Positions 11,981-64,000 of a DNA stretch of 64,000 bases are shown piece by piece; the stretch's first letter is position 1, and each line of letters opens with the position of its first letter. Both the position numbers and the translations under genes were made by a program. The stretch comes from Patescibacteria group bacterium (GTDB lineage: Bacteria; Patescibacteriota; JAQUNI01): positions 271,451 to 335,450 of the forward strand of contig JAQUNI010000001.1 in NCBI GenBank assembly GCA_028717685.1, written 5' to 3'. The notes beneath the pieces were generated by a model. It worked only from the letters and a program-made list of their open reading frames with translations. It searched no databases and had not been told where the DNA came from.

Positions 11981-12036
11981 TTTACCATAACTGTAATAGA
12001 TAGAAAAGGAATGACGCAAAAAGGAGGTGTGAGACG

Positions 12037-19037: not shown

Positions 19038-19117
19038 TTATTTTAGTTCCTCCCCTGATAAGGGGAGGGTAGAAGGGATTATTAACCCCCTTTAATTCCC
19101 CCTTGTCAGGGGGAAAA

Positions 19118-37112: not shown

Positions 37113-37403
37113 AATTTTTAATTTCTAATTTTCAATTTTCATTAAATTTCTATTTTTGAAATTTCTAAACTGAAAAAGTTAATCTCTCAACGTTTAAAAA
37201 TTAATTCATTAAAAATTTAATAGAAATTAAAAATTTAAAATTAGAAATTATTACACAATAAAGCAAATATATTAACGTTTTACTAAAGGCGTGTCTTCTA
37301 AAAGAAACTTAAAATCCACGCCCTTAGTGAGGTAGTGAAATCCTAGCCAGGATCCTGTTCTGCGCACATCCAGGATTTGCAATCTACCCCACTATAACCT
37401 AAT

Positions 37404-40295: not shown

Positions 40296-40333
40296 GGAAA
40301 TAAAGTTAAAAGTGAAAAGTGGAGAATGAAATC

Positions 40334-41410
40334 TTATTTGAGCAGGGAACGAAAGTTTCTGGGATCTTGAGAATACATTAAAGCATGAGTTATATCAACC
40401 ACTCCCTCCTTAACCAAACGGGCAAGGGATTTATCCAAAGGAACCATCCCTTCCTCGGCTCCGGTCTGTAAAACACTTTCAATCTGGTGAGTTTTTTGTT
40501 CGCGAATAAGATTGCGGACCGCCGCGTTAACCATCATAATTTCACAAGCCACGGCCAAACCCCCGCCGATGCGGGGCAATAGTCTTTGAGAGACAATTCC
40601 GCCTAGGACATTAGCCAATTGAAAACGCACTTGATTTTGTTGATGCGAAGGGAAAACATCAATAACCCGATCAATCGTCTGGGGAGCATTATTGGTATGG
40701 ACCGTGGAAAAAACTAAATGTCCTGTCTCGGCTACGGTCACCGCTGTCGCAATCGTATCCAAGTCCCGCATTTCTCCCACCATCACCACATTCGGATCTT
40801 CTCGGAGCGCCGCGCGCAACGCTTCGGGAAAAGAATTGGTATCCTGGTATAACTCTCTTTGGTCAATGAGACACTTGTCTTGGGTAAAGAGATATTCGAT
40901 AGGATCTTCAACAGTGATAATATGTTCGGCGCGCTTATGATTAATTAAATCCAAAAGGGCAGCTAGGCTGGTTGATTTACCATGCCCGGAAGGACCGACG
41001 AGAAGAATGAGACCCTGGATTAAATCTGTCAACCCCTCTAAAATCGGAGGGAGACCCAATTCGCCAATCGTTCTAATCTTCATAGGAATAAGGCGAAAGG
41101 CAGCACTCAAAAAACCGCGTTGATAAAAAACATTAATCCGGAAACGCGCTTTCTCTTGAAATTCATAGGACAAATCTACCGATTTTTCATTCATTAAACG
41201 TTCTTTTTGTTTTTCATTCAGTAAACCTAAACAAATTTTTTCCGTATCACTCGGATCAAGCATCTTTTCTTCTTTCATGGTGATTAATTCACCATCAATC
41301 CTTAAGGTAGGATAGCGACCCACCGAAAGATGAAGATCCGAAGCATTCCTCTGGGCAGCGGCAAGAAGAAATCGCTTAATTGTTAATTGTACATTATCAT
41401 AAAAAGCCAT
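40334..41410 (-). CDS. pilT: Twitching-motility/retraction ATPase PilT
   Basis: 358 aa. Walker A GPSGHGKST, Asp box, Walker B, His box. The PilT-size protein lacks the N-terminal PilB extension. Confidence 0.8.
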   Translation of the reverse strand: MAFYDNVQLTIKRFLLAAAQRNASDLHLSVGRYPTLRIDGELITMKEEKMLDPSDTEKICLGLLNEKQKERLMNEKSVDLSYEFQEKARFRINVFYQRGFLSAAFRLIPMKIRTIGELGLPPILEGLTDLIQGLILLVGPSGHGKSTSLAALLDLINHKRAEHIITVEDPIEYLFTQDKCLIDQRELYQDTNSFPEALRAALREDPNVVMVGEMRDLDTIATAVTVAETGHLVFSTVHTNNAPQTIDRVIDVFPSHQQNQVRFQLANVLGGIVSQRLLPRIGGGLAVACEIMMVNAAVRNLIREQKTHQIESVLQTGAEEGMVPLDKSLARLVKEGVVDITHALMYSQDPRNFRSLLK

Positions 41411-41481
41411 AAATTAAAAGTTAAATCTTAAGTTCATTTTATCCCTAGCCTTAACTTTTGCGATCTGACCTCTAACTTTTT

Positions 41482-43287
41482 CTAAATGTTCGTTGCCTTA
41501 AGCACTTCTTCTAAAGTAGTCTCACCACGCAGAACCTTCAGAATCCCATCCTGTCTCATATTAATAAGCCCTTTTTTAACCATAACTTCTTCAATTTGAT
41601 TTTCGGAAGGTTTGGAAAGAATTAATTCCTGCAAGTCAGGTGTTAAAGGAATGGTTTCAAAAATACCAATTCTCCCCTTGTAGCCTTCGTTATTACAGTG
41701 CTTACAACCCTTACCCTTGTAAATAATAACTTTGTCTTTGTTCGGATTAAGCCCTTCTTTTTCAAAATCCGGAATCATCTCCCACTCTTTAAGGATAATC
41801 TTGCGAATTTCCTCACTAGCTTCCACCTTCTCCATGCACTCCCTACAAAGCTTCCGCACAAGCCTTTGGGCGATCAAAACGTTTGTCGCCGCGCTGATTA
41901 AAAAGGGTTGGATGCCCATGTCAATCAGGCGAGGCACGGCGCCTACCGCGCTATTAGTGTGCAAAGTGGAAAGAACGACATGCCCTGTCAGTGAAGCATG
42001 AATAGCCATTTCCGCGGTCTCCTGATCGCGAATCTCGCCGACCATAATAATGTCCGGGTCCTGACGCAAAATAGAACGCAAGCCTGAGGCAAAAGTCAAT
42101 CCCACTTCCGGGTGAACCTGGGCTTGAGCAATACCAGGGATAAAGTACTCCACAGGATCCTCCAAGGTCACAATATTCACATCTTCTTGATTTAAAATCC
42201 CTAAAATTGAATAAAGCGTGGTAGACTTGCCGCTCCCCGTGGGACCCGTCACTAATAATAAACCATGCGCTTTGATTATTTCCGCTTTAATATGTTGCAA
42301 TCTTAAACCCGTCAAACCTAATTCCTCCAAAGAAAACATTCTTGCCCCAGTTTCCAGAATTCTCATTACGATCTTCTCTCCGCTCATTGTGGGCAGTGTG
42401 GAAATCCGAAAATCTACCGGATGACCGCCAAATTCCAGACGAATGCGACCATCTTGAGGAATCCGCGTTTCGTCAATCTTCATATTGGCAAGCACCTTCA
42501 CCCGGGAAACAATACCCTCGCGAATTTTAATAGGTAAGGAAAGGGTAGTCCGCATCACACCATCAATCCGATAACGCACCCTCACCATTTTATCTTCAGG
42601 TTCAATATGAATATCCGAAGCCCTCGCTTCCACCGCGTGCTTGATAATCCCTTGTAAAATTTTGGAAATGGGAGCCGCTTCCACTAATTTAACAATCTCT
42701 TTTTCTCTATCTTCTAAAACCTTCTTCTCTTCGTGCTTTTTCTCCACGACCTCTTCCAAGGCTTTCGTCACTTCCTCCTTAAGACTCTGCTCATACTGCC
42801 GAAGAACAAAATCCAAGCTCGCCTTATTGGTAATATAGATGGCTGTAGAAAAACCCTGTCTCCCCGTCGCAAACTCTAAAGCTTCCAGAGCTTTAAAATC
42901 CGCAGGATCAGCCATCGCTACTTTCACGACATTATCTTCCCCGCGCTCAAAAGCAACCATATGATAAGAGACAGCGACTTCTTGAGGAATCAATTTTAGG
43001 ATATGCGGCGGAATAGGACGCGTCTCTAAATCTACAAACTCCACGCCTAAAAATTCACCTACTACTTGGACTAAGGATTTCTCCGGCACGAGATCTAAAT
43101 CACGGATTAGCTGTTCTAAAGGAAGGTCGGTTTTCTGGGCTTCCTTTTCAATCAACTTCCGCTTTTCTTCATCAATCAGTTGCTTCTCTTCTAAAACATC
43201 TAATAAATTTTTTTTCTCCCACTTTCTGCCCCGCATTTTTTGCAAAACAGCTTTAGTGGAATTCTCTGATGATTTTACTTCCTTCAT
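41482..43287 (-). CDS. pilB: Type IV pilus assembly ATPase PilB (GspE family)
   Basis: 601 aa. N-terminal GspII_E domain, Walker A GPTGSGKSTT, C-terminal tetracysteine motif CRECM…CKHC. Confidence 0.85.
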   Translation of the reverse strand: MKEVKSSENSTKAVLQKMRGRKWEKKNLLDVLEEKQLIDEEKRKLIEKEAQKTDLPLEQLIRDLDLVPEKSLVQVVGEFLGVEFVDLETRPIPPHILKLIPQEVAVSYHMVAFERGEDNVVKVAMADPADFKALEALEFATGRQGFSTAIYITNKASLDFVLRQYEQSLKEEVTKALEEVVEKKHEEKKVLEDREKEIVKLVEAAPISKILQGIIKHAVEARASDIHIEPEDKMVRVRYRIDGVMRTTLSLPIKIREGIVSRVKVLANMKIDETRIPQDGRIRLEFGGHPVDFRISTLPTMSGEKIVMRILETGARMFSLEELGLTGLRLQHIKAEIIKAHGLLLVTGPTGSGKSTTLYSILGILNQEDVNIVTLEDPVEYFIPGIAQAQVHPEVGLTFASGLRSILRQDPDIIMVGEIRDQETAEMAIHASLTGHVVLSTLHTNSAVGAVPRLIDMGIQPFLISAATNVLIAQRLVRKLCRECMEKVEASEEIRKIILKEWEMIPDFEKEGLNPNKDKVIIYKGKGCKHCNNEGYKGRIGIFETIPLTPDLQELILSKPSENQIEEVMVKKGLINMRQDGILKVLRGETTLEEVLKATNI

Positions 43288-43333
43288 AAATTACTTCTTA
43301 CGCTTTAGGATGTCGCTCGCGAACGACATCCTT

Positions 43334-44410
43334 TTAGGGTAATAATTCCCGCAGAGCTAAGCCGACCGCCACATCAAATGTGGGGCCCAGTTCATCCAGA
43401 ACCTTTTTGAGCTCTTGGGGAATAATAATTTTACTCCAGGGATCAGCCACGACAATCTTATTGTCTAAAAAGAGAGATAAATAGCTCGTGAACTCGGGTA
43501 ATTTCGCGCTCCCGCCAGAAAGGATAATTTGCGACACTTGACTGCCGCCGCGGTTATAGAATAAATTCAAACAATGACGAATCTTTTCCACAATCACATC
43601 AATTACAGGCTTGATGGCGCGCGGAATCTCCCCTCCCATCTTCTCGCGGGATACACCGAAATCTTTTTTAAATTGCTCGGCGCGCTCAAAACTTACCTGA
43701 AGACTATGGGCAATGACGCGGGTGAGGGCGTTTCCGCCCATATCTACGCTCAAATTTAACTTAGGGAAACCATCTTCAATAATACAAATCTCCGTCGCCG
43801 TGGCTCCAATATCCACAATCATAGCCCCTTCTTTTTGCGTATCTACCAAGACGCGCGCCAAAGCCATTGCTTCAGGTTCCAGACCCACTAGCTCTAAATT
43901 AGCCTTCTTGAAAACATCACCATATCTTTTCACGATATTCTTGGGCACAGCGGTTAAAAAAACTTCTATTCCTTCTTGAGGTTTTAAGGCTTCAGCCTTC
44001 TGATTTTTCCGGGAGGATTTGGGCGTAATAACCTCCCAATCTAAAATAATTTCCTCAATAGGAAAAGGAATATAGCGCTTGGATTCCCACTTGACCGCGG
44101 AAGCCAATTCTTCTTCTTCCATCTTCGGCAGATTTAAAATCGTCGTAAAAACCGAGAACCCGGGCAAAGAAGCGATCGCGCGCGAACCCTTCGCTCCACT
44201 TTCTTTAACAATTCTTTGAAGGCTTTTGCAGATTTTTTCCCGTACCGCGGGTGAATCGCTTCTAATCACATCGTCGGCTAAATCAATCGCGCCATAGGTA
44301 GATAAATTCACTCCCCCTTTCCATCTATTCAGCTCCACAATTTTTAAATTAGAAGTGCCAATATCTACGCCCAAATAACGATTTTTGGATTTAATACCAA
44401 AAAATCCCAT
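43334..44410 (-). CDS. pilM: Type IV pilus assembly protein PilM (actin-like ATPase)
   Basis: 358 aa. LGVDIGTSNLKIVEL gives the actin/HSP70-fold phosphate-1 motif. Confidence 0.8.
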   Translation of the reverse strand: MGFFGIKSKNRYLGVDIGTSNLKIVELNRWKGGVNLSTYGAIDLADDVIRSDSPAVREKICKSLQRIVKESGAKGSRAIASLPGFSVFTTILNLPKMEEEELASAVKWESKRYIPFPIEEIILDWEVITPKSSRKNQKAEALKPQEGIEVFLTAVPKNIVKRYGDVFKKANLELVGLEPEAMALARVLVDTQKEGAMIVDIGATATEICIIEDGFPKLNLSVDMGGNALTRVIAHSLQVSFERAEQFKKDFGVSREKMGGEIPRAIKPVIDVIVEKIRHCLNLFYNRGGSQVSQIILSGGSAKLPEFTSYLSLFLDNKIVVADPWSKIIIPQELKKVLDELGPTFDVAVGLALRELLP

Positions 44411-50928: not shown

Positions 50929-51078
50929 CAATAATAATTTTTAATTTCTAATTTTTAATTTTTATTGAATTTTCAATTCTAAAATTTTCAAACAGAAATT
51001 TTAATATTTAATGCTATTGTTTAAAAATTAAGTCATTATAAATTTAATAAAAATTAGAAATTGAAAATTAGAAATTAT

Positions 51079-53091
51079 ATGCTATCCCCTTCCTCTCCCC
51101 TTTCCTCCCTCTATGGCGTGGGGGCGCAAAAACAAAAAGCTTTGAAAAAATTGGGTCTAGAAAAAATTCATGACCTAATTTTTTATTTCCCCTTTCGTTA
51201 TAATGATTTTAGTAAAATCGTTACCATCCGAGATTTGCAACCTGGAAAAATCATCACGGTCTTGGGAAAAATCCAAAAGATTCGGACGATCCGCACGCCG
51301 CGTAAAAGAATGTTTCTGACAGAGATAGAAGTGGCGGATGAAACCGGAGTCATTTCCTGCCTCTTTTTCAATCAGCCGTATCTCGCGGAGACTCTTAAAG
51401 AAGACATGCTTGTATATTTAAGCGGTCAAGCGGCATACGGGATTCCTTACTATACAATGCAGAATCCGGAATACGAAATCTACAAACCCCGCACTACGCA
51501 TACCGCTCGGATTGTTCCGATCTATAATGTGACCTACGGCATCTCGCCGAAATGGTTGCGCTATTTGGTAAGCCTGGTGATGCCCTCAATTCAAAAAATT
51601 CCTGATTATTTACCTTCTCAAATCCGGCAAAAATACCACTTCCTTCCTCTTGCCAAAGCCTTAACCGAGATTCATTTTCCTTCCACATTCCCCAAAATGG
51701 AGAAAGCAAAAAGGCGCCTTGCTTTTGATGAATTTTTTATCTTGCAAACCGCGGCTTTAGCATATAAAAAAAACTTAGCCAAACAAAAGGCGCCCTCCAT
51801 ACCTATGGATGTGAAACTCGCCCAGTCATTCGTTCGCTCTCTGCCTTTTCTTTTAACTTGCGACCAACGCAAATGCGCTTATGAGATTTTGAAAGATCTC
51901 GAAAAAACGCAGCCTATGAACCGTCTTTTAAACGGCGATGTGGGGAGCGGCAAGACCGTGGTCGCGGCAATGGCGCTACTGCAAACCGCGGCTGCCGGAT
52001 GGAATGCGGTTCTGATGGCGCCCACGGAAATTTTAGCCGAGCAGCATTTTCAAGAAATCTCCCGTTTGCTCCAAAAATTTAAAATAAAAATTGGCCTTTC
52101 AACCGGCGCAAAAAAAATAAAACTAGAAGCCCAAATCTTAATTGGCACCCACGCTTTGATTCAAAAAAAGGCGCGGCTTAAAAATTTGGGATTAGTGGTC
52201 GTGGATGAACAGCACCGCTTTGGCGTAAAGCAACGCGGGGAGCTTCAGCATAAAACGACCTCCCTTATTCCCCACTTTCTTTCTATGACCGCCACGCCGA
52301 TCCCCCGCTCGCTTGCCCTCACCCTCTATGGCGACTTGGATATCTCGCTTATTCGGGAAATGCCCCCGGGGCGCAAAAAAGTAATCACCAAAATCGTTCC
52401 TCCCGAAAAAAGAAATCTCGCTTATGAATTTATCCGCAAAAAGATCCAGGCTCACGAACAGGTCTTTGTGGTCTGCCCCCTCATTTTGGAATCTGACAAA
52501 CTCGGCGTGAAATCCGCGACTAAAGAGTACGAAAAACTGCGAAAAGAAATTTTTCCGGAATTTAAAATCGGCCTGCTCCACGGCAAACTGAAAACAGGAG
52601 AAAAAGAAAAGGTGATGATGGATTTCAAAGCGGGTCACACCAAAATTTTAGTCGCCACCGCAGTGGTGGAAGTAGGGATTGATGTGCGAAACGCCACGAT
52701 TATGATGATTGAAGGGGCGGAACGATTTGGTCTTGCTTCTCTGCACCAGTTTCGCGGCCGGGTGGGACGCGGCGAGAAACAAGCCTACACTTTTGTTTTC
52801 ACGGAATCAAACGAGCCAAGGACTTTAAAAAGATTGAAGGCGCTGGTTTCGGCGCGTGATGGTTTTGAGCTGGCAGAATATGATTTGCAATTTCGCGGTC
52901 CAGGCGAAATTTACGGCACGCGCCAAGCGGGTTATTTAGATTTAAAAATCGGCTCTCTTTGGGATTTAGATTTAATCAAAACCGCAAGGCAGGAGGCGAA
53001 AGAGCTTTTAGAAAAGAATCCAAACCTAAATAAATATCCCCTCCTCCAAGAAAAAATAACAAAAAAACTAAGCGAGATTAGCTTAGTATAA
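51079..53091 (+). CDS. recG: ATP-dependent DNA helicase RecG
   Basis: N-terminal wedge domain, Walker A DVGSGKTVVA, DEQH box, helicase C-terminal motifs (QFRGRVGRG), and the TRG motif region. Confidence 0.85.
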   Translation: MLSPSSPLSSLYGVGAQKQKALKKLGLEKIHDLIFYFPFRYNDFSKIVTIRDLQPGKIITVLGKIQKIRTIRTPRKRMFLTEIEVADETGVISCLFFNQPYLAETLKEDMLVYLSGQAAYGIPYYTMQNPEYEIYKPRTTHTARIVPIYNVTYGISPKWLRYLVSLVMPSIQKIPDYLPSQIRQKYHFLPLAKALTEIHFPSTFPKMEKAKRRLAFDEFFILQTAALAYKKNLAKQKAPSIPMDVKLAQSFVRSLPFLLTCDQRKCAYEILKDLEKTQPMNRLLNGDVGSGKTVVAAMALLQTAAAGWNAVLMAPTEILAEQHFQEISRLLQKFKIKIGLSTGAKKIKLEAQILIGTHALIQKKARLKNLGLVVVDEQHRFGVKQRGELQHKTTSLIPHFLSMTATPIPRSLALTLYGDLDISLIREMPPGRKKVITKIVPPEKRNLAYEFIRKKIQAHEQVFVVCPLILESDKLGVKSATKEYEKLRKEIFPEFKIGLLHGKLKTGEKEKVMMDFKAGHTKILVATAVVEVGIDVRNATIMMIEGAERFGLASLHQFRGRVGRGEKQAYTFVFTESNEPRTLKRLKALVSARDGFELAEYDLQFRGPGEIYGTRQAGYLDLKIGSLWDLDLIKTARQEAKELLEKNPNLNKYPLLQEKITKKLSEISLV

Positions 53092-54116: not shown

Positions 54117-54360
54117 TTGGTGAAAAGGGTGCCTGTCCGCTATGCTCTTAGCGGCAGCATGGCAGGCGGGAGACCTCTTCTAACTCCCCACAGGTCAAGG
54201 GAAGGAAGATTTTCACTCCCCCTGCCCGAGGGGGAGATGGAGGGGGTGGGAGCTTCAGAACCCCTCCCATCCTCCCCCTTGGAAAGGGGAGGTGAAATGC
54301 ACTCCCCCTTCCACCCTAAGAGCGGACACAGTGGCAAGAGGGAGGGTATTATTACATTTA
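54117..54360. repeat. GC-rich multi-hairpin repeat (CTCCCC…GGGGAG family), copy 1
   Basis: Hairpins CTCCCCC-tgcccga-GGGGGAG and CTCCCC-cttggaaa-GGGGAG. About 75% of this matches 59650-59800 on the other strand. The spurious ORF 54117..54395 lies within it. Confidence 0.6.
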
Positions 54361-55716
54361 TTTTACTTTCTCAATTGCTTCCTGAATTGTGTTGACCTTA
54401 ATAATTTCCATTCCTCCTGTGTTTTGAAGAGTAGAAAAAGAGGGTAAAATTATTTTCTTAAACCCTAAAATCGCCGCTTCTTTAATTCTTTTTTCTATAT
54501 TATTTACCCGACGCACCTCGCCCGATAAGCCCACTTCACCCAGGGCGATTAAGTCCGAAGGCAAGGGCTTATCCGTGAGGGAGGAAAAAATCGCCAAGGC
54601 AATCGCTAAATCAATGGCGGGTTCAGCCACGCGAAATCCGCCGGCGATATTAGCATAAATATCCTGATTAGCGAGCCGCAATTTAGCTCTCTTGCTTAAA
54701 ACCGCAATAATAAGTTCCAAACGCCGAGCATTAATGCCGGAAGCCGCTCTTTTCGGATAACCAAAAATAGTCGTGGTGCATAGCGCCTGCACCTCCACTA
54801 AAAAAACACGCACGCCCTCAATAGTGGCGGTAACGCAAGAGCCGGGCAAACCCTCCCGCCGTTCCTCTAAAAAAATTTGGGAAGGATTTTTGACCTCTGC
54901 CAAACCTTGCCCCGTCATTTCAAAAACGCCGGTTTCGTCCGTCGCACCAAAACGGTTTTTTACGCCACGCAAAATGCGAAAAGTATGGTAACGCTCCCCT
55001 TCTAAATACAAAACTACATCTACTAAATGCTCCAGGGTTTTAGGTCCCGCGACATTGCCTTCTTTGGTCACATGACCAATTAAAAAAATCGGGATATTAT
55101 TTGTTTTCGCCACTTGAGCGAGCTTTTGCGTCGCGAGGCGCACTTGGGTGATACCGCCGGCTTCGCCTGGAATGTCTTCAGAAGACATTGTTTGAATGGA
55201 ATCAATCACCGCCAAAGACGGCTTCAAACTTTCTATGGTGGCGCAAACCGCGTCAATATTCCGCTCTCCCAGAAAGATAAGTTCGCCCGCGGGAAAACCT
55301 AAGCGGTCGGCGCGCAATTTCACTTGAGCGCCTGATTCTTCGCCGGAGACATAGAGAACCTTCTTCAACTCGCTAACCCTGCTTGCGGCTTGCAAAATCA
55401 AAGTGGATTTGCCAATCCCGGGCTCTCCGCCTAACAAAATAAGGGATCCTGGAACAATCCCTCCGCCTAAAACCCGGTCAAATTCGGAAAAATAAGTAGT
55501 AAGCCGTGTAAAATCTGTGTTTTGGATATCGCCTAAAACTTCTGTGGCGGCTGGGAGAGCGGCGCTTTTCGCGTTCCGCACTTCCCCTCTTGCCTCCGCC
55601 ACTAAACTATTCCACTCCCCGCAAGTCGTGCATCTTCCCTGCCAAGTCAAAAACTCGGCTCCGCACTTAGAACAGATATAAATTGTCTTGACCTTGCTCA
55701 TTTTTCCAGAAATCAA
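54358..55716 (-). CDS. radA: DNA repair protein RadA (Sms)
   Basis: N-terminal zinc finger CSKCGAEFLTWQGRCTTCGEW. Walker A GGEPGIGKSTL, KNRFG motif, C-terminal Lon-like domain. Confidence 0.9.
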   Translation of the reverse strand: MISGKMSKVKTIYICSKCGAEFLTWQGRCTTCGEWNSLVAEARGEVRNAKSAALPAATEVLGDIQNTDFTRLTTYFSEFDRVLGGGIVPGSLILLGGEPGIGKSTLILQAASRVSELKKVLYVSGEESGAQVKLRADRLGFPAGELIFLGERNIDAVCATIESLKPSLAVIDSIQTMSSEDIPGEAGGITQVRLATQKLAQVAKTNNIPIFLIGHVTKEGNVAGPKTLEHLVDVVLYLEGERYHTFRILRGVKNRFGATDETGVFEMTGQGLAEVKNPSQIFLEERREGLPGSCVTATIEGVRVFLVEVQALCTTTIFGYPKRAASGINARRLELIIAVLSKRAKLRLANQDIYANIAGGFRVAEPAIDLAIALAIFSSLTDKPLPSDLIALGEVGLSGEVRRVNNIEKRIKEAAILGFKKIILPSFSTLQNTGGMEIIKVNTIQEAIEKVK

Positions 55717-55944
55717 TACTATCTTATTATTCTAAACAGCTTAATTAAAAATGTAAAATGCAAAATTAAAAATTACAATTCAAAATTTAAAAATTAACTT
55801 TGTAAAACCCAAATCAAATTGTCGTCCCATTAATCTCTAAAAGATAACAAAAATCAATTTTAAACCTTAAACTGTAATTTTGCCACGCCCGCCATGCTAG
55901 CCTAAGCGGCTAGATTAGACGTTGCGGACGGGCATTTTAAACTT

Positions 55945-56835
55945 TTAATTTTGAACTTTATTTAGCTCTGCCTCTATGATTCCGCTCAACTCTTCAAACG
56001 ACACTGCTCCCTCCACTTTTTGATTATTCACAAACAATGTCGGGGTGGCGGAAATGCCGGCGGAAATGCCGGCATCTAAATCTTCCATTATTTTCAACTT
56101 CGATTCACCCTGATTCATGCAGGTATTGAATTTTGTCATTTCCAAACCCGCTTTTTCCGCTAAGGAGGCAAGAAGGCTTTCGGTAATACGGGCGCTGTTC
56201 GCGAAAATTAAATCGTGGAGCTCCCAAAACTTGCCCTGCTCCCACGCGCATTCCCCCATCTCGTGCGCCAGCGGGGAAAGAGGATGGATATTTTCAATCG
56301 GTAAATCCCGAAAAACAAATTTCACCCGCGTGCCATACTTACTTTTTAATTGAGGCAAGGCGGTCTTGGCAAACTCGGCGCAATAGGGGCATAAAAAATC
56401 AGAAAATTCCACAATGGTTACTTTGGCGCCCTCCGGCCCCCACGAAGGATTCCCTTCGCCGGCTAAATTATTATATCCCGCGCTTCCCGCCACCATTTGG
56501 GACGGATTATCAGCGCTTGGCGCGGAAGGAGCGGCTTCCGTCCCTTCTTCTATTGTTGTTTCGCCGGCGGTATTCTCACTTTTAGCGCGGGCTAAATAAC
56601 TGTTTTCCGGGGTCTGCAACGCGTGTATTCCCTCCTCATCATAGGCGAAAAGTTTGCCTTGGTCCACATTGTCCGTGTTTGGACTCACGACTTCAGCTAA
56701 ATTCCCCCCCATTTGCGTTCCTAACGCACTAAAAGAAATCTGCCGGCTCTTCATCCCTCGCCAAAAAAGAACTCCGCCGCCAACGGCGGTTAGAGTGATA
56801 ACTAGAAGGATAACTTTATCTAAACGATGAATCAT
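55945..56835 (-). CDS. DsbA-family thiol:disulfide oxidoreductase (membrane-anchored)
   Basis: N-terminal TM helix. Thioredoxin fold with the active site CPYCAEF. Confidence 0.75.
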   Translation of the reverse strand: MIHRLDKVILLVITLTAVGGGVLFWRGMKSRQISFSALGTQMGGNLAEVVSPNTDNVDQGKLFAYDEEGIHALQTPENSYLARAKSENTAGETTIEEGTEAAPSAPSADNPSQMVAGSAGYNNLAGEGNPSWGPEGAKVTIVEFSDFLCPYCAEFAKTALPQLKSKYGTRVKFVFRDLPIENIHPLSPLAHEMGECAWEQGKFWELHDLIFANSARITESLLASLAEKAGLEMTKFNTCMNQGESKLKIMEDLDAGISAGISATPTLFVNNQKVEGAVSFEELSGIIEAELNKVQN

Positions 56836-56996
56836 ATCTGAAGATTACTGAATAAAAAGTGTTAAGTTTAAATCTTGTAACTTGTAACTCATAACCTATA
56901 ACTCAAGCACTTTCCTTCTTGTGTTACAAGTTACAAGTTTCAAGTTACAAATCCTTTATCTAAATTTTACGTTTTTCGTTCTACATTGTGCGCTAT

Positions 56997-58139
56997 TTAA
57001 TCCAACCTTAATGCATACACCCCGTTACCCGCGTCGGTAAAATAAAGTTTGTCTTCGGTGGATGAAAGCCAAAGGTTAGTGGCGTCAAATCTCGCGTCCG
57101 ATTCGGATTCATCATAAAGTTTTCGCTTTTCCCCGGTTTTGGTATTGATTTCCCAAAAATTATCAATGCTTTCATCGTCCACGCTCGCTTGCGCGCCAAG
57201 GGGCTCTGAAGGCACGGCGCAATAAAGCTTCTCACTCGTTTTATTCCAGACGCATTTCTCAATAAAGCTCTTGATCCCTAAATTATAATTGTTCGTCCCG
57301 GTCAAGTCAACGACCCAGAGATATTGTTCATAATTCTCCGCCGATACCGCCTCGTAAAGCAAACGACTGCCGTCCCGGCTCCACTTTGCTTTTTCGCCAT
57401 AGCCTTCTAAGCGGATCGGGACGCCCGCCGCCCCATCCTTATAAACCAGATAGACGCTGCGTTCCGCCCCGTAAGCGTAATTCTGCAATATCGCCACGGG
57501 TCCGTTTAATTGCGGCGAACTTCCGGCAAGCAGCTTGGCATAACCTAAATCCTTAATCTTTTCCCAGTTATTGCCATCCGCGTCCGCGATAATGAGCTGC
57601 CTTTCCCCTTCGTTTTCCTGCCACTCGTATACAATCTTAGTACCGTCGGCAAACCAGGAAAACTGGGTCGCGGCGGGCATTAGTTTAGTGGACTGACCCG
57701 TCCCCACATTAAAATGATAATGATCGCCATTCCCGAAACCCAGAATCGCCTGCGTCTTGTCCGGAGACCAAATTACCTCGCTGACATTAGTAAAAACACT
57801 GTCGCTGTAAGGAACGGCTTCTCTGCCATCTTGCAAGACGCGAAAAAACTTGCCTTGATCAACATCATAATAAACAATTTCATTGCCTTTCAAAGCGAAA
57901 CTTAAAACGCGATTCTCCACAACCTGGGTTACTTTAGAAACCTCGGGCACAATGGTTTGACCATTCGCTTGCGCTGGCGCCGTCGCTTGCGGCTCCGCAA
58001 CGGGAGCGGACGCGGAAGGGGCAGGAGGTAATTTTTGCGGCGGACTGGAAAAAAATAAAAGATAAATAAGCGATCCTAAAATCACCAGAATTAAAACGCC
58101 AATAATGATAAGGAAAACTTTACGGGACATAGTAGACAA
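56997..58139 (-). CDS. Membrane-anchored beta-propeller protein (TolB/PD40-like repeats)
   Basis: 380 aa. N-terminal TM, Pro/Ala linker, and repeated W..DG…Y motifs (VIWSPDKTQAILGF, SWFADGTKIVYE, KWSRDGSRLLYEA). Confidence 0.55.
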   Translation of the reverse strand: MSTMSRKVFLIIIGVLILVILGSLIYLLFFSSPPQKLPPAPSASAPVAEPQATAPAQANGQTIVPEVSKVTQVVENRVLSFALKGNEIVYYDVDQGKFFRVLQDGREAVPYSDSVFTNVSEVIWSPDKTQAILGFGNGDHYHFNVGTGQSTKLMPAATQFSWFADGTKIVYEWQENEGERQLIIADADGNNWEKIKDLGYAKLLAGSSPQLNGPVAILQNYAYGAERSVYLVYKDGAAGVPIRLEGYGEKAKWSRDGSRLLYEAVSAENYEQYLWVVDLTGTNNYNLGIKSFIEKCVWNKTSEKLYCAVPSEPLGAQASVDDESIDNFWEINTKTGEKRKLYDESESDARFDATNLWLSSTEDKLYFTDAGNGVYALRLD

Positions 58140-58388
58140 ATTAAAATGTAAAAATCTCCACCCTAGACGGATCGGCCTCGGGCCGAAAAATTAAAATGAC
58201 AGTGTAAAATTTTAAAATGAGAATTCACCATTTAAGATTTCATTGGAGGTCGCGCGAAAGCGCGACACGAGTCAGTGTCAGACTTTCGTCTTTACAGGGC
58301 CTTCGGTCTGACCTCCAAAGCGCGACGCGGTAAATACCGTGGCATGGATTCCCCTAAAATCAAGTTTTTTACTTAGCACAATCCATAA

Positions 58389-59609
58389 TTATTGTGTTTG
58401 TAACAGAACTGTATTGCACTTATAGTTATTACCATCTTTTTGACAAAGTCCATACTGGCCGCCTATTGCTTGTTGGCAAGCTCTTTCCATTGCAACATCT
58501 TTATCCGTACACTGCCGTGTGGGTTCGGAGGGGGATATTAACAGATGCGAGCTGCCATTGAAGCAAACTGCTGTCGGCGGCTTACTCCAATCAGCTGGGT
58601 TAATAGGTTTTCCGTGGCATTTTTCCCTTAAATCCTCTGTCCCCTTGTTAGAATCTCCACTACAGGTAGGGGAACAAATCTCGGTTAAACTAGAACATAG
58701 ATTTTTTCCTCCCAGGCAAAAACCATCTTTACCGTCTTTTTTACAAGGATACATTCCCTTGCAATTCAGATCTGGCACATCCTTGAGACGGGTGAAGCCG
58801 CATTCTGTGTCGTTGGTGCAAAGACTCTGAATATCTAGACATGTCACCACACCAACTTCTTCCAAACAAGTTCCCTGCTTATTGGTATTGATGGCGGTGT
58901 AGCAGGCCTTATTTTTACAAATAGTTTTCGGATTGCCATTGCATTCTTCAGCGCAATTGGTTTTGTCGACATCACAAGCGCAAATGCCGCCAACATTGGA
59001 TTGTGGCGCGCAATAGCCCGGTATGGCACCCTTTTTACAAACATCTCCTACTCGCTTTTTCAAGGCAGGACTGCATTCTGGCACCGAATCCGTGGGGCAG
59101 AAGGCGGCGCCGGCTGAATTATCTTGCTCAATCTTAGTCACTGCCTCCCTCAAACTCTCGGACAGCTTTTCGTTGTCCCACGTCAAATTAATTAAATCAG
59201 GATTCACAAACCTCAACAGGACAAAAGACGTTAAACCCAAAGCCAAGCCGCCGATAGCGTAAAAAATACGGGTCTTCGCTTGTTTCGCCTGATCCCCGCC
59301 CAAAGAGGTTAGGTATTGATAACCGCCGACCATTATCATCACCACTCCCGCGATCGCCATTAAGACTAAACCCAAGTCATAAAGAATGAAAATTAAAACC
59401 ACGGGATTTTTAATACAGCGGCCGTTCTGTGTGTAGTCTTTCAACGATCCTAACCCTGTCAAATTTCTATCAAATACAACTGGAAGGGGAAATTTTAACC
59501 AAGTCCCTTCCGTCTTTTCGCATTCTGTTTGAGTTGCGCGGCTGACGCTAGGCATAGCCAAACCGCCAAGGAAAATCACCAAGAAAATAAGGAAAAAATA
59601 TTTTTTCAT
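58389..59609 (-). CDS. Cys-rich polytopic membrane / secreted protein (signal peptide, two TM helices, about 250-aa Cys-rich extracellular domain)
   Basis: The real start is probably MKKYFFLIFLVIFLGGLAMPSVSRA at 59609. The track ORF N-terminal extension (to 59858) is the GC-rich repeat. The VirB2/TrbC-like topology call is an inference only. Confidence 0.55.
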   Translation of the reverse strand: MKKYFFLIFLVIFLGGLAMPSVSRATQTECEKTEGTWLKFPLPVVFDRNLTGLGSLKDYTQNGRCIKNPVVLIFILYDLGLVLMAIAGVVMIMVGGYQYLTSLGGDQAKQAKTRIFYAIGGLALGLTSFVLLRFVNPDLINLTWDNEKLSESLREAVTKIEQDNSAGAAFCPTDSVPECSPALKKRVGDVCKKGAIPGYCAPQSNVGGICACDVDKTNCAEECNGNPKTICKNKACYTAINTNKQGTCLEEVGVVTCLDIQSLCTNDTECGFTRLKDVPDLNCKGMYPCKKDGKDGFCLGGKNLCSSLTEICSPTCSGDSNKGTEDLREKCHGKPINPADWSKPPTAVCFNGSSHLLISPSEPTRQCTDKDVAMERACQQAIGGQYGLCQKDGNNYKCNTVLLQTQ

Positions 59610-59649
59610 AAGAATTTGTGTTTTGAGATTTGAGTGCTGTGAATTATGG

Positions 59650-59800
59650 AACTTTCGTAAAATCATAAAATATTCATGAGGAGCCTCTCCCTCCCCCTCT
59701 TGTCTCCCCTCTTCGGGCAAGGGGAGTGAAAATCTTCCTCCCCTTGGAAAGCGGGAGGTGGGGTGGGGTTCTGGGTTTTTCCAAATAAAGTGAATTTCAT
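59650..59800. repeat. GC-rich multi-hairpin repeat, copy 2
   Basis: CTCCCCT-cttcgggca-AGGGGAG and CCTCCCC-ttggaaag-CGGGAGG. See 54117-54360. Confidence 0.6.
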
Positions 59801-59830
59801 AATTCAAGATAAAAAATAGAATGCTGCAAA

Positions 59831-61339
59831 TTATGGCGGAGTCAAATTCTCCGCGCAATCACACTCCGCGTCCTTGATGCTCAAATGAATATGATTAGCA
59901 CTTGTGGTCTCGTTCAGAAAACCCGCGTCAAGATTCATCTGTGTGCCACACAAACTTGCTTCCGCCCTTAACCGGACATAGATTTGATCACCAATTTTAT
60001 TTCTTTTTGTGCTATCAACAGGTTGAACATCAAAAGCCACTGACTGGTTGCAATTATGCCCTCCATAATGGCAGGACCATTGACCATGGGCGCAGGCGGG
60101 ATCGGTCCAGTTATTTCCCTGACAGGTGGCAAGACCCGCGCCATCAGAAAGAGAGGTAACCTGCCAGGCATTAGTGTCAGCAGGAAAACCGCTATGAATA
60201 CAATTAATAAAATCAATGAGCTGCGGATCCGCTTCATTTAACTGACTACCCCCCGCGACCAAATTAGCTTGCCAGCCATTGGGCTCTCCCGTCTCGCCAG
60301 AAGATCCATAAGAAGAACCGCCCAGATTGCCATAGCCCATGCCCCCTGGCGTTTTAAAAACAGAGCAGAAAGCCTGACCCGAAGCAGTGCCGTCACAGTC
60401 TTTTTGCGCTTTGACATAAAAAACAATTACTACCACTAAGATAATGACTAATATAATAATTGCGATAATAAGAGCCACTAACCCGCCTCCTGCCACTATC
60501 GCGGCGCCCGCCCTTGCAAGAGCAGAACCTGCCGCCCTTCCTGCGCCTCCCGCAGCTCTTCCCGCGGCTCCCGCGGCCGGACCCGCTTTTGGCACGGCAG
60601 CTCGCGGCCGAAGTTTGGCAGGAACTTTGATTTTCGCAGGTTTTTTGGGCGCTATTTTCTCCGGCTGCCGCAACTCCTTCAAACGTCTCTGAAATTCTGC
60701 TTCTTTTCTTCTTTTTTTTATCTCTTTCTTACCCCTCTCTTCTGCCGCCTTCTTTATCCTGTCCATTATATCTTCGCCTTCCTCCTCTTCGCCTGCTCCC
60801 TCCCCCTCCACCTCCCCCTCGGGCAGGGGGAGAGCCTCTCCTTCCCCTTCTTCGCCCGCTCCCTCGCCCTCCCCTTCTTCCTCCGGAACTTCCCCGAATT
60901 CCGGGACTTCCTCTTTTTCCTCTTTCTCTTGGTCTGCCGCTGGCTTCTCCTCTTTCTCCTTGCCCACGCCCTGACCGGATAAAGCTTCTCTCCTTTTATA
61001 TTCTTCCTCCTGCCTTCTTGCTTCCTCTTCTCGTGCCGCTTGGCGGGCAAGATAGCTTTTCTTTTTTGCCTTTGCCGCTATTCCAGCCACCGCGGCTCCT
61101 ATTGCTACCTTTTTAATCCTGCGCCGCGCTGTGTCCCATTGCTTCTTATATTCCTCATCCAAAACGCCAGCAACCCCTTGATCTCCTTCCTCGGTAATGC
61201 GAGTATCTTTGCGCTTAATCGGGGTTCCGCGAGTCCCGCGTCCTACTGCCTTGAGCGACGCGGACTTTTGCACATCTATATCCATATTCTTACCGCTAAA
61301 ATCAATATTTTGTCCTTGAGAATTATCACGTTCTGCCAT
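59831..61339 (-). CDS. Bitopic membrane protein. Cytoplasmic K/E-rich region with acidic GEGEGAGEE repeats, Ala/Gly-rich tract, one TM helix, about 190-aa Cys-containing extracellular domain.
   Basis: 502 aa. TM helix LVALIIAIIILVIILVVVIVFYV. The C-terminal domain is CDGTASGQAFCS…CQGNNWTDPACAHGQWSCHYGGHNCNQ…HIHLSIKDAECDC. Confidence 0.6.
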   Translation of the reverse strand: MAERDNSQGQNIDFSGKNMDIDVQKSASLKAVGRGTRGTPIKRKDTRITEEGDQGVAGVLDEEYKKQWDTARRRIKKVAIGAAVAGIAAKAKKKSYLARQAAREEEARRQEEEYKRREALSGQGVGKEKEEKPAADQEKEEKEEVPEFGEVPEEEGEGEGAGEEGEGEALPLPEGEVEGEGAGEEEEGEDIMDRIKKAAEERGKKEIKKRRKEAEFQRRLKELRQPEKIAPKKPAKIKVPAKLRPRAAVPKAGPAAGAAGRAAGGAGRAAGSALARAGAAIVAGGGLVALIIAIIILVIILVVVIVFYVKAQKDCDGTASGQAFCSVFKTPGGMGYGNLGGSSYGSSGETGEPNGWQANLVAGGSQLNEADPQLIDFINCIHSGFPADTNAWQVTSLSDGAGLATCQGNNWTDPACAHGQWSCHYGGHNCNQSVAFDVQPVDSTKRNKIGDQIYVRLRAEASLCGTQMNLDAGFLNETTSANHIHLSIKDAECDCAENLTPP

Positions 61340-61357
61340 AATGTTTTTTAGAAAATT

Positions 61358-61954
61358 TTAATCCGCCCAAGAAGCGCGATCCACCCTCCATTCATCTTGA
61401 CCGGCGAGGTTCGTTTCCACGACCAAATTTAAAAGAAGATTGGCATAATGGCTCTCGCTTACTTCACCCCTTTGGATCGTGCGCTCGGTTACTGCTAAAA
61501 TCTTTGCTTGTTTCTTCTCTTGGCTCAAAACAACTGTTTCCAAGACCATGGTTTTCCATTCAAATGGTAAGCCGCTATATCGTTCAGCGCATTGTTCTTC
61601 AATGATGCCTTCAGACTCGGCGCGGAAACGGCCCGACATATAATCTAAAAGAGCTTTGATGTTTTGACAATTATCCGCGCTGGAAAAAGTGCCCCACACC
61701 TCCGTAAAATCGCGGGCTAAGGTTCTCAATTCTGATTCGGCATTTATCCCTTCATCAACAACATCCACGGCTTGCGGCGCTACGGGCAAAGACGGCGCGG
61801 AAGACGGGGTTGTCTCCGTCGCTATTCCCGAAGGAGTGATAGAAGGAGACGCGCTTCCATCCCCTGTTTTATTTTTGCAACCGAAACCCCCTGTCGTCAT
61901 CAGGATAAAACAGAGAGTCATAAAAATGGTGAATTTTTTATTTTTTAAAAGCAT
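61358..61954 (-). CDS. Lipoprotein (NTF2-like; possible VirB8/TcpC-type T4SS component)
   Basis: Lipobox TTGGFGC, a Ser/Pro-rich linker, and a roughly 120-aa alpha+beta domain. Confidence 0.5.
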   Translation of the reverse strand: MLLKNKKFTIFMTLCFILMTTGGFGCKNKTGDGSASPSITPSGIATETTPSSAPSLPVAPQAVDVVDEGINAESELRTLARDFTEVWGTFSSADNCQNIKALLDYMSGRFRAESEGIIEEQCAERYSGLPFEWKTMVLETVVLSQEKKQAKILAVTERTIQRGEVSESHYANLLLNLVVETNLAGQDEWRVDRASWAD

Positions 61955-62124
61955 GCTTAAAGGATAATTTTCAATTTCTAATTTCTAATTTTTATTAAAT
62001 TTTCAATGAATCAATTTTTAATGCTTAAATAATTTAGAGGACTGAATAATTTCGAAAGACTGTTTAGAAATTTAAGAATTAAAAATTGATTAAAAATTAA
62101 AAAATAAAAATTAAAAATTTATCA

Positions 62125-64000
62125 TCACTCTGCGCTTTTTGTCTCATCTTCATTTAACTCCATACCTTCGTTTGCTGACATTTCCACACCATTTTGCCCT
62201 TGCGCTCGCGCGAAATCTTCCTTCGCGCGGGCAATCTCAATCAACTGCTTCGGGTCGGAAGTAATAATCTGGTCCTCGGAATAAGAAGCGACGATTTTAA
62301 TCGCCACATGCTTATTGCCGGCAAAGAAGATGCCCTCGCCCACATCCGAAGCTAAAAGCAAATATTTCTCTTCTTGGGTGAGATGGAAAACAGAGGCGAC
62401 CAAATCAATCGCGGCTGGGGATTGCCGCAGAAGGAGCTGAATTGAAGAATTAGTAACAATCGCCTGACCATGCCGCGTGGATAAGAAGTCATTAACGTCC
62501 TGGCTAATCGTAGTCAAACCGAGATAATATTTACGCGCTCTCTTGGCAATAGAAAAAAGAAACATCGCGGAATCTTCATGCTCCATCAGCCACCACGCCT
62601 CATCCACCATCAGAATCCTTTTTTTGAGTTCTGCCCGCACAATATTCCAGATATAATTCAAAACAATATACATCCCAATCGGACGCAGTTCGTCTTCCAA
62701 ATCGCGGATACTGAAAACGACGAACTGCTTGTCCAGACTGATATTAGTCGGCTCGTTAAATATGCCCGCGAAAGTCCCCTCGGTAAATTTAGAAAAAACC
62801 TGGGCAATGCTCTGCGCCCCTTCGGTGCTTTGCAAAATACGCTCAAAGTCCGTCATCGTCGGCATTTCTTTGCCCTCCCAAGAAGTATCAGGCGTAATGC
62901 CTTTGGAAGCATAAGTTTGAATCAATACTTCATCCAGCAGGGCGTCAGCTTCAGGGGTGATGCCGCCTAAGATTAATTTTGCCAACCCTTTAAGATTAAT
63001 AATCGCCTCCCGTAAAATATCAGTGGGATTAGTTTCGTGGGAGGCAATGGTTAAATCAAAGGGGTTAATGCGATAAGGAGAGGCTAAAGAAATTTCCAAA
63101 AAGCTCCCTCCCACCGCGTTCGCCAAATATTTATATTCATTTTCAGGGTCAATCACTAAAACATCCGCCCCCAGCATTAGGCTGCGCAAAATCTCTAGTT
63201 TAATCGCATAGCTTTTCCCCGCTCCGGATTTTCCGAAAACGACTGCGTTCGCGTTTTCCAAGGAAAAACGATCAAAAAGGACTAAACTATTATTGTGGCG
63301 GTTGATGCCGTAGAGAACTCCCTCGTTAGAAGAAAGTTCATAGGACACGAAGGGAAAACTCGTGGACAGAGGGGAGGTATTGAGATTATTGGTGATAAAA
63401 ATCTCATCATTGCCCAAGGGAAGGGTGGAAATAAAACCCTGTTCGGCTTGGAAAACCGCCTGTTTGGTGTAAATCAAACGCGAACCGAGGAGATTTTCCA
63501 CTCTCTTCGTATTTTTATTTAATTGTTTTAAGGAACTGCCATAGATTGTAATGTAGAGAGCGAACTTAAACAACCTCTCGGTCCCCTGCTGCAGAGAATC
63601 GCGCAAGGCTTCCACATTCTTGTAGGCATTTTCCAAAACCGGATTGCGCACCTTGCCATGCTCCTGCTCCACCGCGATACTAGAAGATATCTTAGCTAGA
63701 GTTTTGGTGAGATTCTTCAAAACCGTGTTTGAGCTTTGGGGATAAATGAACATCCCAACATCAAAAATGGCGTCCATATTGATCACCGGCGTAAACCAAT
63801 CCGTATGCAAATAACGCGGATAAGTATAAACAAAGAGGGTGCGGGAAAAATACTCGCCAATCTGGACATAGCGCGAAGTAACGCGCATTGCCGAAGGGGC
63901 TAAGAGATCTCGCAAGGTCGCTACCCCTTCCAAATATGCCTTTTGCGCCTCCAGAATATTAATCTTCTCCTCCTGGCTTAAACCTAAACGCGAAGGCGCG
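62125..64000 (-). CDS. VirB4/TrbE-like type IV secretion ATPase (5'-partial; continues beyond the window)
   Basis: Walker A VFGKSGAGKSY. VirB4 signature VLVIDPENEY. Walker B ILMVDEAWWLM. The ORF is open to the window edge; the 'M' at 63933 in the track is a TTG codon within a longer open frame. Confidence 0.75.
   Translation of the reverse strand, partial: APSRLGLSQEEKINILEAQKAYLEGVATLRDLLAPSAMRVTSRYVQIGEYFSRTLFVYTYPRYLHTDWFTPVINMDAIFDVGMFIYPQSSNTVLKNLTKTLAKISSSIAVEQEHGKVRNPVLENAYKNVEALRDSLQQGTERLFKFALYITIYGSSLKQLNKNTKRVENLLGSRLIYTKQAVFQAEQGFISTLPLGNDEIFITNNLNTSPLSTSFPFVSYELSSNEGVLYGINRHNNSLVLFDRFSLENANAVVFGKSGAGKSYAIKLEILRSLMLGADVLVIDPENEYKYLANAVGGSFLEISLASPYRINPFDLTIASHETNPTDILREAIINLKGLAKLILGGITPEADALLDEVLIQTYASKGITPDTSWEGKEMPTMTDFERILQSTEGAQSIAQVFSKFTEGTFAGIFNEPTNISLDKQFVVFSIRDLEDELRPIGMYIVLNYIWNIVRAELKKRILMVDEAWWLMEHEDSAMFLFSIAKRARKYYLGLTTISQDVNDFLSTRHGQAIVTNSSIQLLLRQSPAAIDLVASVFHLTQEEKYLLLASDVGEGIFFAGNKHVAIKIVASYSEDQIITSDPKQLIEIARAKEDFARAQGQNGVEMSANEGMELNEDETKSAE

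Follow-up and report, generated by a model that had tools for sequence, protein, structure and literature searches.

The chromosomal type IV secretion system (T4SS) of the Patescibacteria was surveyed across ~2,500 genomes by Quinonero-Coronel et al. (2025; PMC12102498), who found its VirB4 to form a clade related to that of the MPF-FATA systems. TrsD, PrgI/VirB3, VirB6 and VirB2-like pilins (PF18895, PF04956) were abundant, VirB8 was rare and found mostly in the class ABY1, and relaxases were located near virB4 in only 15 of the ~2,500 cases. The T4SS of ABY1 often had comF, recG and radA as neighbours, for which a functional coordination was suggested. Epibiotic growth of Southlakia epibionticum depends on the T4SS cluster, which is essential there (Wang et al. 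2023; PMC10633639), and a 2025 review gives the Patescibacteria system as a new T4SS type (PMC12857230). Analysis of a 64,000-nucleotide (nt) stretch of the Patescibacteria group bacterium contig JAQUNI010000001.1 (positions 271,451 to 335,450; hereafter the window, in which coordinates are counted unless the locus of another genome is named) revealed a cluster of six genes, all on the minus strand and spanning 55945-64000. We consider this region very likely to be the distal half of a chromosomal T4SS of the Patescibacteria type, derived from Gram-positive MPF-FATA conjugation machinery and showing the ABY1 organisation.

The window and the published system (PMC12102498, PMC10633639) have in common an MPF-FATA-like VirB4, TrsD, PrgI and VirB6 upstream of it (as seen in the close relative L002, described below), a probable VirB2-like PF18895 pilin in a monoderm, a VirB8-like protein, the lack of a nearby relaxase or type IV coupling protein (T4CP) and an ABY1-typical radA/recG neighbourhood. 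The window differs in encoding one pilin and one protein with a LAS-like domain, compared to the six-gene pilin array of the published system. All six genes had been named in a preliminary description made from the sequence alone, as a VirB4-family ATPase leaving the window, an NTF2-like lipoprotein, a bitopic K/E-rich protein, a Cys-rich protein with VirB2-like topology, a membrane-anchored beta-propeller and a DsbA-like oxidoreductase. Each was present as an open reading frame (ORF) on the minus strand, and these identities were borne out by domain screens against Pfam and NCBIfam with curated cutoffs, by AlphaFold2 (AF2) structure models and by Foldseek structure searches. The same description held that the components besides VirB4 had no recognisable homology. 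The first Pfam/NCBIfam pass gave no match above the cutoff for the lipoprotein, bitopic, Cys-rich and propeller proteins, and sub-threshold matches of pilin models to the Cys-rich protein and of PD40/TolB to the propeller; the claim nevertheless largely fell, as a PF18895 pilin, a VirB8 fold, a TolB/PD40 propeller and a LAS-like domain could be assigned. The novelty that it implied was also overstated, the system and its ABY1 radA/recG neighbourhood having been described in 2025 (PMC12102498).

The virB4 gene (62125-64000) encodes a TrsE-type, MPF-FATA-like ATPase. Its frame was uninterrupted through base 64000, which shows that the gene is cut by the end of the window; the C-terminal 624 codons are retained and the 5′-end lies outside. 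The fragment matched the Pfam models P-loop_TraG (1.5e-24, 86.9 bits, cutoff 25.8), CagE_TrbE_VirB (22.9 bits, cutoff 21), AAA_10 and DUF87, and it contained a Walker A motif, GKSGAGKS, at 63211-63234 and a Walker B motif, MVDEAW, at 62593-62610. The VirB4 fragment was matched against species-representative genomes; this gave 80 related loci, in all of which ORFs were called and searched with each protein of the cluster. The closest relative, L002, was a Candidatus Doudnabacteria metagenome-assembled genome with a gene order identical to that of the window and 86-96% DNA identity. The VirB4 of the window and that of L002 shared 99% amino acid identity (tblastn) and 96% nucleotide identity, and the L002 VirB4, of 659 amino acids (aa), scored 359.4 bits on the NCBIfam model conju_CD1110 (NF045971, cutoff 325).

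Upstream of virB4, L002 encoded a 1174-aa protein, two uncharacterised proteins of 445 aa and 483 aa, PrgI/VirB3 (8e-8), a 257-aa TrsD-type protein that is the equivalent of the VirB4 N-terminal domain, and part of a gene for a 23S-rRNA-intervening-sequence protein. In the 1174-aa protein, an extended VirB6/TrbL-like protein, the polytopic core was flanked by a Cys-rich N-terminus and a long cytoplasmic tail. Homologues of the polytopic core (1e-14 to 1e-25) were found at the equal position in 33 other loci, and five of ten tested homologues matched TrbL/VirB6 (PF04610). Most of the 80 loci, like L002, encoded PrgI, TrsD and the VirB6/TrbL-like protein upstream of virB4, and the genome of the window presumably does so too. 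Between the VirB6-like gene and PrgI there was always, in the 27 loci that have it, a member of the family of the 445-aa protein (u445), to which L002 adds the 483-aa protein (both within L002 4984-8037); the u445-family and 483-aa proteins had no Pfam match and may be additional components of the T4SS. Genes for the four-helix-bundle 23S-rRNA-intervening-sequence protein (PF05635), or pieces of such genes, were located amid PrgI, TrsD and VirB4 in L002 (9652-9864), L006, L007, L033 and L039, with up to three copies among the T4SS genes of L007.

Conjugation proteins of Gram-positive bacteria include homologues of VirB4, TrsD, PrgI and VirB6, and the best NCBIfam match is named a conjugal transfer ATPase, as would be expected if the region were a remnant or an active part of an integrated conjugative element (ICE) or plasmid. 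The genes around the cluster argue otherwise. The window ORFs of at least 500 aa contained no relaxase, integrase or coupling-protein domain at E <= 1e-5 (the smaller ORFs were partly scanned), which agrees with the preliminary description, and none was found in the 10 kb upstream of virB4 in L002. The GC content of the region was unremarkable, and the surroundings consisted of housekeeping genes on both sides (LigA, GatA, TGT, RmuC, an AddA-like helicase, ClpB, RecG, RadA and tRNAs). In addition, many lineages share the gene order and have it at a similar type of chromosomal site, and the published survey places relaxases near virB4 in the few cases given above (PMC12102498). We therefore regard the ICE or plasmid origin as highly improbable. 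The preliminary description had also suggested a chromosomal, non-conjugative T4SS, which is consistent with the housekeeping surroundings, with the upstream genes of L002 and with the match to PMC10633639 and PMC12102498; neither an upstream ICE or plasmid module nor an orphan VirB4, the two outcomes that it had named as contrary, was seen, as L002 has the VirB6-like, PrgI/VirB3 and TrsD genes upstream.

The Gram-positive systems of pGO1/pSK41 (Trs) and pCF10 (Prg) share with the window and its relatives the split into TrsD and TrsE (VirB4), a PrgI-like VirB3 and a VirB8-like scaffold of the PrgL/TraM type. Compared to these systems, the window had no relaxase, T4CP, oriT or PrgB-type adhesin and its location was chromosomal. 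It encoded a VirB2-like pilin, which is absent in the Gram-positive systems, and its putative hydrolase was LAS/hedgehog-like rather than SLT/CHAP.

The titles of the 80 loci were mostly Patescibacteria; some read 'bacterium' only and ~10 read Bdellovibrionales, Gammaproteobacteria or Pacearchaeota, the latter presumably being mislabelled bins. Conservation of the cluster in relatives, which the preliminary description had proposed to check, was evident as a recurrent order of VirB6L, u445, PrgI, TrsD, VirB4, a small protein (VirB8-like), one or more pilins and the propeller. As this same order recurred in dozens of independent Patescibacteria genomes, the cluster is not a chance grouping. Of the 51 loci whose downstream flank extended over 6 kb or more, 28 had the propeller gene on the same strand as virB4, at a downstream distance of no more than 9 kb, and the 198-aa VirB8-like family was encoded directly after virB4 in 21 of the 80. 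In the independent genome L083 (positions 1-12055) the T4SS cluster was located near dnaA and ended with a pilin, a pilin carrying the LAS-like domain and the propeller.

The L083 cluster also contained, between virB4 and the pilins, genes for an Rce1-like CAAX protease and an uncharacterised 930-aa protein. The Moranbacteria-type loci (L018-L047) were organised differently: two pilin genes were located upstream of PrgI, there was no propeller, and downstream of virB4 there was a conserved set of uncharacterised proteins of ~200, 508, 321 and 267 aa. Some pilin-like proteins of these loci, such as that at L047 4077-5027, had two tandem PF18895-like hairpins.

The 406-aa protein encoded between 58389 and 59609 was identified as a probable VirB2-like T4SS pilin with a Cys-rich extension. 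Its start was placed at the ATG at 59609, as in the preliminary description, because the L002 orthologue, of 404 aa, begins at an ATG. An alternative 489-aa ORF with a TTG start, reaching to 59858, was rejected; its additional N-terminal stretch spans a dispersed repeat (59705-59746) and is at odds with the 404-aa orthologue. The protein had a signal peptide, MKKYFFLIFLVIFLGGLAMPSVSRA, followed by a first transmembrane (TM) segment at residues 70-100, the loop TSLGGDQAKQAKTR and a second TM segment extending to residue 137. The two-TM hairpin (residues 70-137; 59199-59402), with its short, positively charged loop, has the topology of a pilin. The hairpin region matched PF18895 (T4SS_pilin) with 17.9 bits (E 3.2e-3), below the cutoff of 26.6, and the NCBIfam model NF045849 (Mbov_0395 pilin-like) at 3.6e-3. 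All 50 direct phmmer matches among the virB4 neighbours, from 43 loci and down to 1.7e-13, aligned to the hairpin (residues 72-144), and eight of ten tested hairpin homologues scored above the PF18895 gathering score. As most of the tested homologues pass the cutoff, the 406-aa protein was assigned to the VirB2-like pilins.

Residues 150-406 (58392-59162) form an extracellular domain with 26 Cys in about 257 residues. A search of 1.84 billion representative proteins found two homologues of this domain, one of which was the L002-type orthologue. The domain is thus lineage-specific and a plausible host-specific adhesin. An extension of ~270 aa at the C-terminus is atypical for a polymerising pilin.

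In the 198-aa protein encoded by 61358-61954, a signal/TM segment with a GFGC motif and a lipobox-like Cys26 was joined by a low-complexity linker to an NTF2-like domain (residues 68-198; 61361-61753). One NCBI protein from a Patescibacteria group bacterium was 100% identical to it over the whole sequence. An alignment of 19 homologues from the loci showed the same N-terminal anchor, low-complexity linker and conserved domain of ~130 aa; a lipobox-like FGC was present in some and a plain TM segment in others. In an AF2 model from 38 sequences, the C-terminal domain (modelled residues 70-198) had a predicted local distance difference test (pLDDT) score above 90 and an alpha+beta NTF2-like fold. 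The main group of Foldseek matches in the PDB was the VirB8 family (E 1e-5 to 4e-3, target-normalised TM-score 0.6-0.7), namely CagV, an IcmL-like protein, DotI, TcpC, TraH, TrwG, TraE and the VirB8 proteins of Rickettsia, Brucella, Bartonella and Agrobacterium. Sequence similarity to VirB8, PrgL and TraM models was not significant (PrgL 7aed, E 2.1; Pfam VirB8, 0.06 in one of 19 members). On the basis of its fold, anchor and gene position, the lipoprotein was assigned as a VirB8-like component. The N-terminal anchor, the NTF2-like domain of ~130 aa and the adjacency to virB4 are shared with the VirB8 family (VirB8, CagV, DotI, TcpC, TraM/TraH and PrgL), whereas the lack of significant sequence similarity and a lipobox-like Cys anchor in place of a plain TM segment set it apart, though some of its homologues have the TM segment alone.

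The next gene, 59831-61339, encodes the bitopic protein of 502 aa, to which a LAS-like domain was assigned from profiles, AF2, Foldseek and hhalign. Residues 1-286 were cytoplasmic, K/E-rich and contained acidic GE repeats, and there was no Cys in residues 1-310. They are followed by a single TM segment (residues 287-309; 60413-60481) and by a C-terminal part of 192 residues that contains ten Cys. The LAS-like domain occupies approximately residues 354-502 (59834-60280) of this extracellular part, with the motifs SCHYGG (60059-60076), AFD and HIH (59879-59893). Iterated hidden Markov model (HMM) searches started from the 502-aa and 406-aa proteins merged the two families through hydrophobic and low-complexity segments, and queries consisting of the domains only were used instead. 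Pilin-like proteins of L060 and L045 had a homologous domain in their C-terminal parts, and a profile search revealed 164 database proteins that contain it, most of them 260-330 aa long and many annotated as PF18895 or 'pilin'. Outside the window the LAS-like domain is usually joined to such pilins, and it is thus a common, unannotated C-terminal domain of Patescibacteria T4SS pilins. No model in Pfam matched it, and Pfam/NCBIfam searches with the whole 502-aa and 198-aa proteins were also empty.

The invariant or nearly invariant columns of the domain read S.SD, C, H, S-C-H-Y-G-G, S.A.D, E and H.H. The H, D and H of zinc-ligand type were invariant in 26 aligned sequences, the E and the initial H of HxH were almost invariant, and the same motif was present in 78. 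The AF2 model of the domain had pLDDT values mostly of 80-90, in the 70s in places. In Foldseek, as the preliminary description had suggested for this protein and for the 198-aa protein, the best four PDB matches were M15 L-Ala-D-Glu peptidases (LysECD7, ChiX, RB49 and T5 endolysins), with E-values of 1.5e-2 to 0.15 and target-normalised TM-scores of 0.45-0.63; matches in BFVD included Peptidase M15A with weak E-values. A profile of four sequences had no match among PDB sequences. In the LAS profile search against the PDB, 23 of the 26 matches were hedgehog N-domains (best E 0.065), with SCHYGG..AxD and E..HxH falling on the hedgehog zinc-site motif, and hhalign of the domain with Shh-N gave a pairwise E of 1.6e-4 at a probability of 51%. 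As these individually non-significant lines agree on the hedgehog/DD-peptidase fold, we call the extracellular domain a LAS zinc-peptidase-like domain with a putative activity. It is predicted to be an alpha/beta sandwich like that of the LAS/M15 enzymes (L-Ala-D-Glu and D-Ala-D-Ala peptidases such as phage T5 EndoT5, ChiX and VanX) and the hedgehog N-domain, and S-x-H-Y-G-G...A-x-D...E...H-x-H aligned with the zinc ligands of hedgehog, SLHYEGRAVD...E...HxH. Unlike M15 and hedgehog, the domain had extra conserved Cys residues and was fused to a pilin hairpin or, in the window, to a single TM segment and a large cytoplasmic tail. This single TM segment aligned with TM2 of the pilin, an alignment of hydrophobic segments only that leaves homology unproven.

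Bitopic wall hydrolases, PrgK and TraG, accompany the channel in Gram-positive T4SSs, and the architecture of the 502-aa protein resembles theirs. In Kerfeldbacteria loci, the equivalent pilin paralogue (PF18895) was fused to an SLT lytic transglycosylase (L046 15864-17171 and L034 15873-17402) and was encoded directly after the propeller gene.

The propeller gene (56997-58139) encodes a membrane-anchored, TolB/PD40-like protein in which a Pro/Ala-rich linker connects an N-terminal TM segment to the propeller; two Cys of the propeller are nearly invariant. Against TolB propeller structures the profile of the 30-member family (A5) reached 2e-12 to 7e-11, and against a WD40-type propeller 1e-18; PD40 was found in 17 of the 30 members. 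Assignment to TolB proper was rejected, as the score on TIGR02800 was 19.1 bits against a cutoff of 343 and the match was confined to the propeller region. By profile, the protein shares the PD40-type six-bladed propeller with TolB of the Tol-Pal system; it differs in having neither the TolB N-terminal domain nor Tol-Pal partners, and in its monoderm organism, its TM anchor and its synteny with T4SS pilin genes. The last gene, 55945-56835, encodes a membrane-anchored DsbA-type oxidoreductase that matched Thioredoxin_4 (1.3e-29, 103.9 bits) and DSBA (5.5e-21, 75.7 bits), both above the cutoffs, with an N-terminal TM segment and CPYC at residues 149-152 (56380-56391). DsbA was encoded near the T4SS in seven of the 80 loci, a lineage-restricted set with Doudna-, Komeili- and Kerfeldbacteria titles and some mislabelled or unclassified bins.

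This distribution, the general envelope roles of TolB-like propellers and DsbA, and the gaps of ~250 nt before the propeller gene and ~160 nt before dsbA would all fit a smaller unit, in which only the genes from virB4 to the pilin belong together and the propeller and DsbA are products of unrelated envelope housekeeping genes downstream. The propeller, however, was encoded behind the pilin genes and in the same orientation in the 28 of 51 loci noted above, across lineages in which VirB4 was only ~55-63% identical to that of the window and the other flanking genes were different, and it followed the gene for the pilin with the LAS-like domain again in L083. The exported parts of the cluster were also unusually rich in Cys (26 of 256 and 10 of 192 residues, compared to a background of 1.7%). 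We consider the smaller unit rather unlikely. Given its strong synteny with pilin genes, the propeller is a candidate component of the T4SS, and the Cys content of the exported domains makes a link to DsbA plausible.

Beyond dsbA lies radA (54358-55716, minus strand; Pfam AAA_25, KaiC-type ATPase, ChlI, Zn ribbon and Lon_C), and next to it recG (51061-53091, plus strand; RecG_wedge, DEAD and Helicase_C). RadA was matched in eight and RecG in ten of the 80 loci, after the cluster and in a lineage-restricted subset. This recurrence, and the functional coordination suggested for comF, recG and radA near the ABY1 T4SS (PMC12102498), could indicate a ComB-like T4SS for the uptake or exchange of DNA, in which RadA and RecG, encoded alongside, process the imported DNA; that neither a relaxase nor a T4CP was found would fit import as well. 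On the other hand, recG was on the opposite strand, both are housekeeping genes that may be passive neighbours, and none of the components of the cluster was identified as DNA-binding. Competence could also be served by a type IV pilus (T4P) cluster at 39087-44410, ~10 kb from the T4SS, which encodes PilC (39087-40295), a PilT-like protein (40334-41410), PilB (41482-43287) and PilM (43334-44410). In the only species tested genetically, loss of comEC abolished competence and not viability, T4P mediated competence, and the T4SS was essential (PMC12857230). DNA import is on this evidence an improbable role for the cluster. radA and recG are conserved neighbours in the lineage and are not established as parts of the machine.

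The Patescibacteria-type T4SS proposed for this region probably serves interaction with a host, through transfer or acquisition of macromolecules, and not plasmid conjugation. This is suggested by the lack of both a relaxase and a T4CP and by the published transposon sequencing of Saccharibacteria. VirB4, a member of an established family, would act as a membrane-associated hexameric ATPase that powers assembly, the movement of substrate and pilin, or both, and with TrsD, VirB3 and VirB6 it would form the membrane motor and channel. The 198-aa lipoprotein, placed by fold and position, would be a VirB8-like scaffold on the external side of the membrane. The hairpin of the 406-aa pilin would lie in the membrane or in a pilus and display its disulfide-rich domain outside, most plausibly as a host-specific adhesin. 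The LAS domain of the 502-aa protein, also outside, would most likely cut peptidoglycan stems of its own or the host wall so that the apparatus can pass, and would thereby be a functional analogue of VirB1, PrgK and TraG. The TolB-like propeller may be an extracytoplasmic accessory, either as a wall-spanning scaffold or as a module that binds a wall or host ligand, and DsbA, judging from its adjacency and the Cys content of its neighbours, may oxidise the cysteines of the exported domains.

Several observations weigh against this account of the region or against parts of it. The upstream half is known from the relative L002 rather than from the genome of the window itself, and throughout the cluster the roles beyond family or fold membership are inferred. 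Gaps of 160-250 nt separate most of the genes, and a scan of the cluster for promoters and terminators gave nothing above chance, leaving an operon structure unsupported. For the VirB8-like protein, PARC6 and the CaMKII hub were also among the Foldseek matches, NTF2-like folds are common, and hhalign found no similarity between its family and the ~200-aa equivalents in Moranbacteria- and Paceibacteria-type loci. The signals for the LAS domain (Foldseek 1.5e-2 to 0.15, HMM 0.065, hhalign 51%) converged, each being weak and none significant alone. The spacing from H to D in this domain was 12 residues compared to six in classical M15 and hedgehog domains, and hedgehog-type sites can be non-catalytic. 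The LAS domain was encoded near virB4 in only four of the 80 loci, and the idea that it is a universal neighbour of virB4 was dropped. Finally, as DsbA adjoined the T4SS in so few loci, it is perhaps a mere neighbour.

The locus adds no new kind of system, but several genes of the ABY1 cluster that have been grey boxes can now be assigned to folds. The TolB-like propeller, DsbA, the pilin-borne LAS-type domain and its bitopic version had no mention in the published Patescibacteria T4SS papers as text-searched. The unannotated pilin-borne LAS domain and the conserved propeller appear to be absent from this literature and are modestly new. A tentative possibility is that the VirB2-like hairpin is a general carrier that puts C-terminal wall-cutting domains (LAS in >160 proteins, SLT in Kerfeldbacteria) or Cys-rich adhesins on the surface of the T4SS, with the propeller as a previously undescribed component; the machine would then carry enzymes with which to pierce walls and feed on a host, rather than being a passive, conjugation-type pilus. 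The pilin-hydrolase fusions and the propeller that travels with them are candidates for the crossing of two cell walls and for host recognition. Among T4SSs, only that of the Patescibacteria is known to be essential for its owner to grow.

Two kinds of repeat were found in and around the cluster. A GC-rich, palindromic dispersed repeat with the core CTCCCCCTGCCCGAGGGGGAG was located at 54196-54253, 59705-59746, 60795-60832, 13740-13769 and 19087-19116, mostly in intergenic positions. The copy at 60795-60832 (unstranded) encodes LPLPEGEVEGEGAG and was in frame with the 502-aa gene, in whose acidic region it is located. It belongs to family D20 and forms the inverted repeat I16 with 54216-54253 (95% complementarity). 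Alignment showed this segment to be absent from the L002 orthologue, and translated traces of a similar GC-rich motif were seen in uncharacterised L002 genes. The repeat may be a small mobile or repetitive extragenic palindromic (REP)-like element whose insertion into coding regions of low complexity is tolerated. The second kind consists of AT-rich intergenic repeats of ~60 nt, often in inverted pairs, at 61964-62121, 50932-51078, 37110-37254, 14469-14612, 33339-33459 and 55717-55804; these may be promoter/terminator modules or a miniature inverted-repeat transposable element. The pair at 61964-62121 (unstranded; families D1-D8, inverted pairs I2, I4 and I6) lies between virB4 and the VirB8-like gene and may mark a separate transcription unit.

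Elsewhere in the window, two paralogous Cys-rich ORFs were located at 22033-23583 (44 Cys in 516 aa) and 24350-26386 (69 Cys in 678 aa). They contained 84-nt tandem repeats, were 89% identical over their 300-nt ends, had no Pfam match and are probably surface proteins built from repeats. Additionally, 1749-5261 encoded a 1170-aa protein in which seven LVIVD repeats (a beta-propeller) are combined with a calcineurin-like metallophosphoesterase and a C-terminal FlgD-Ig-like domain, an unusual architecture for a surface enzyme.

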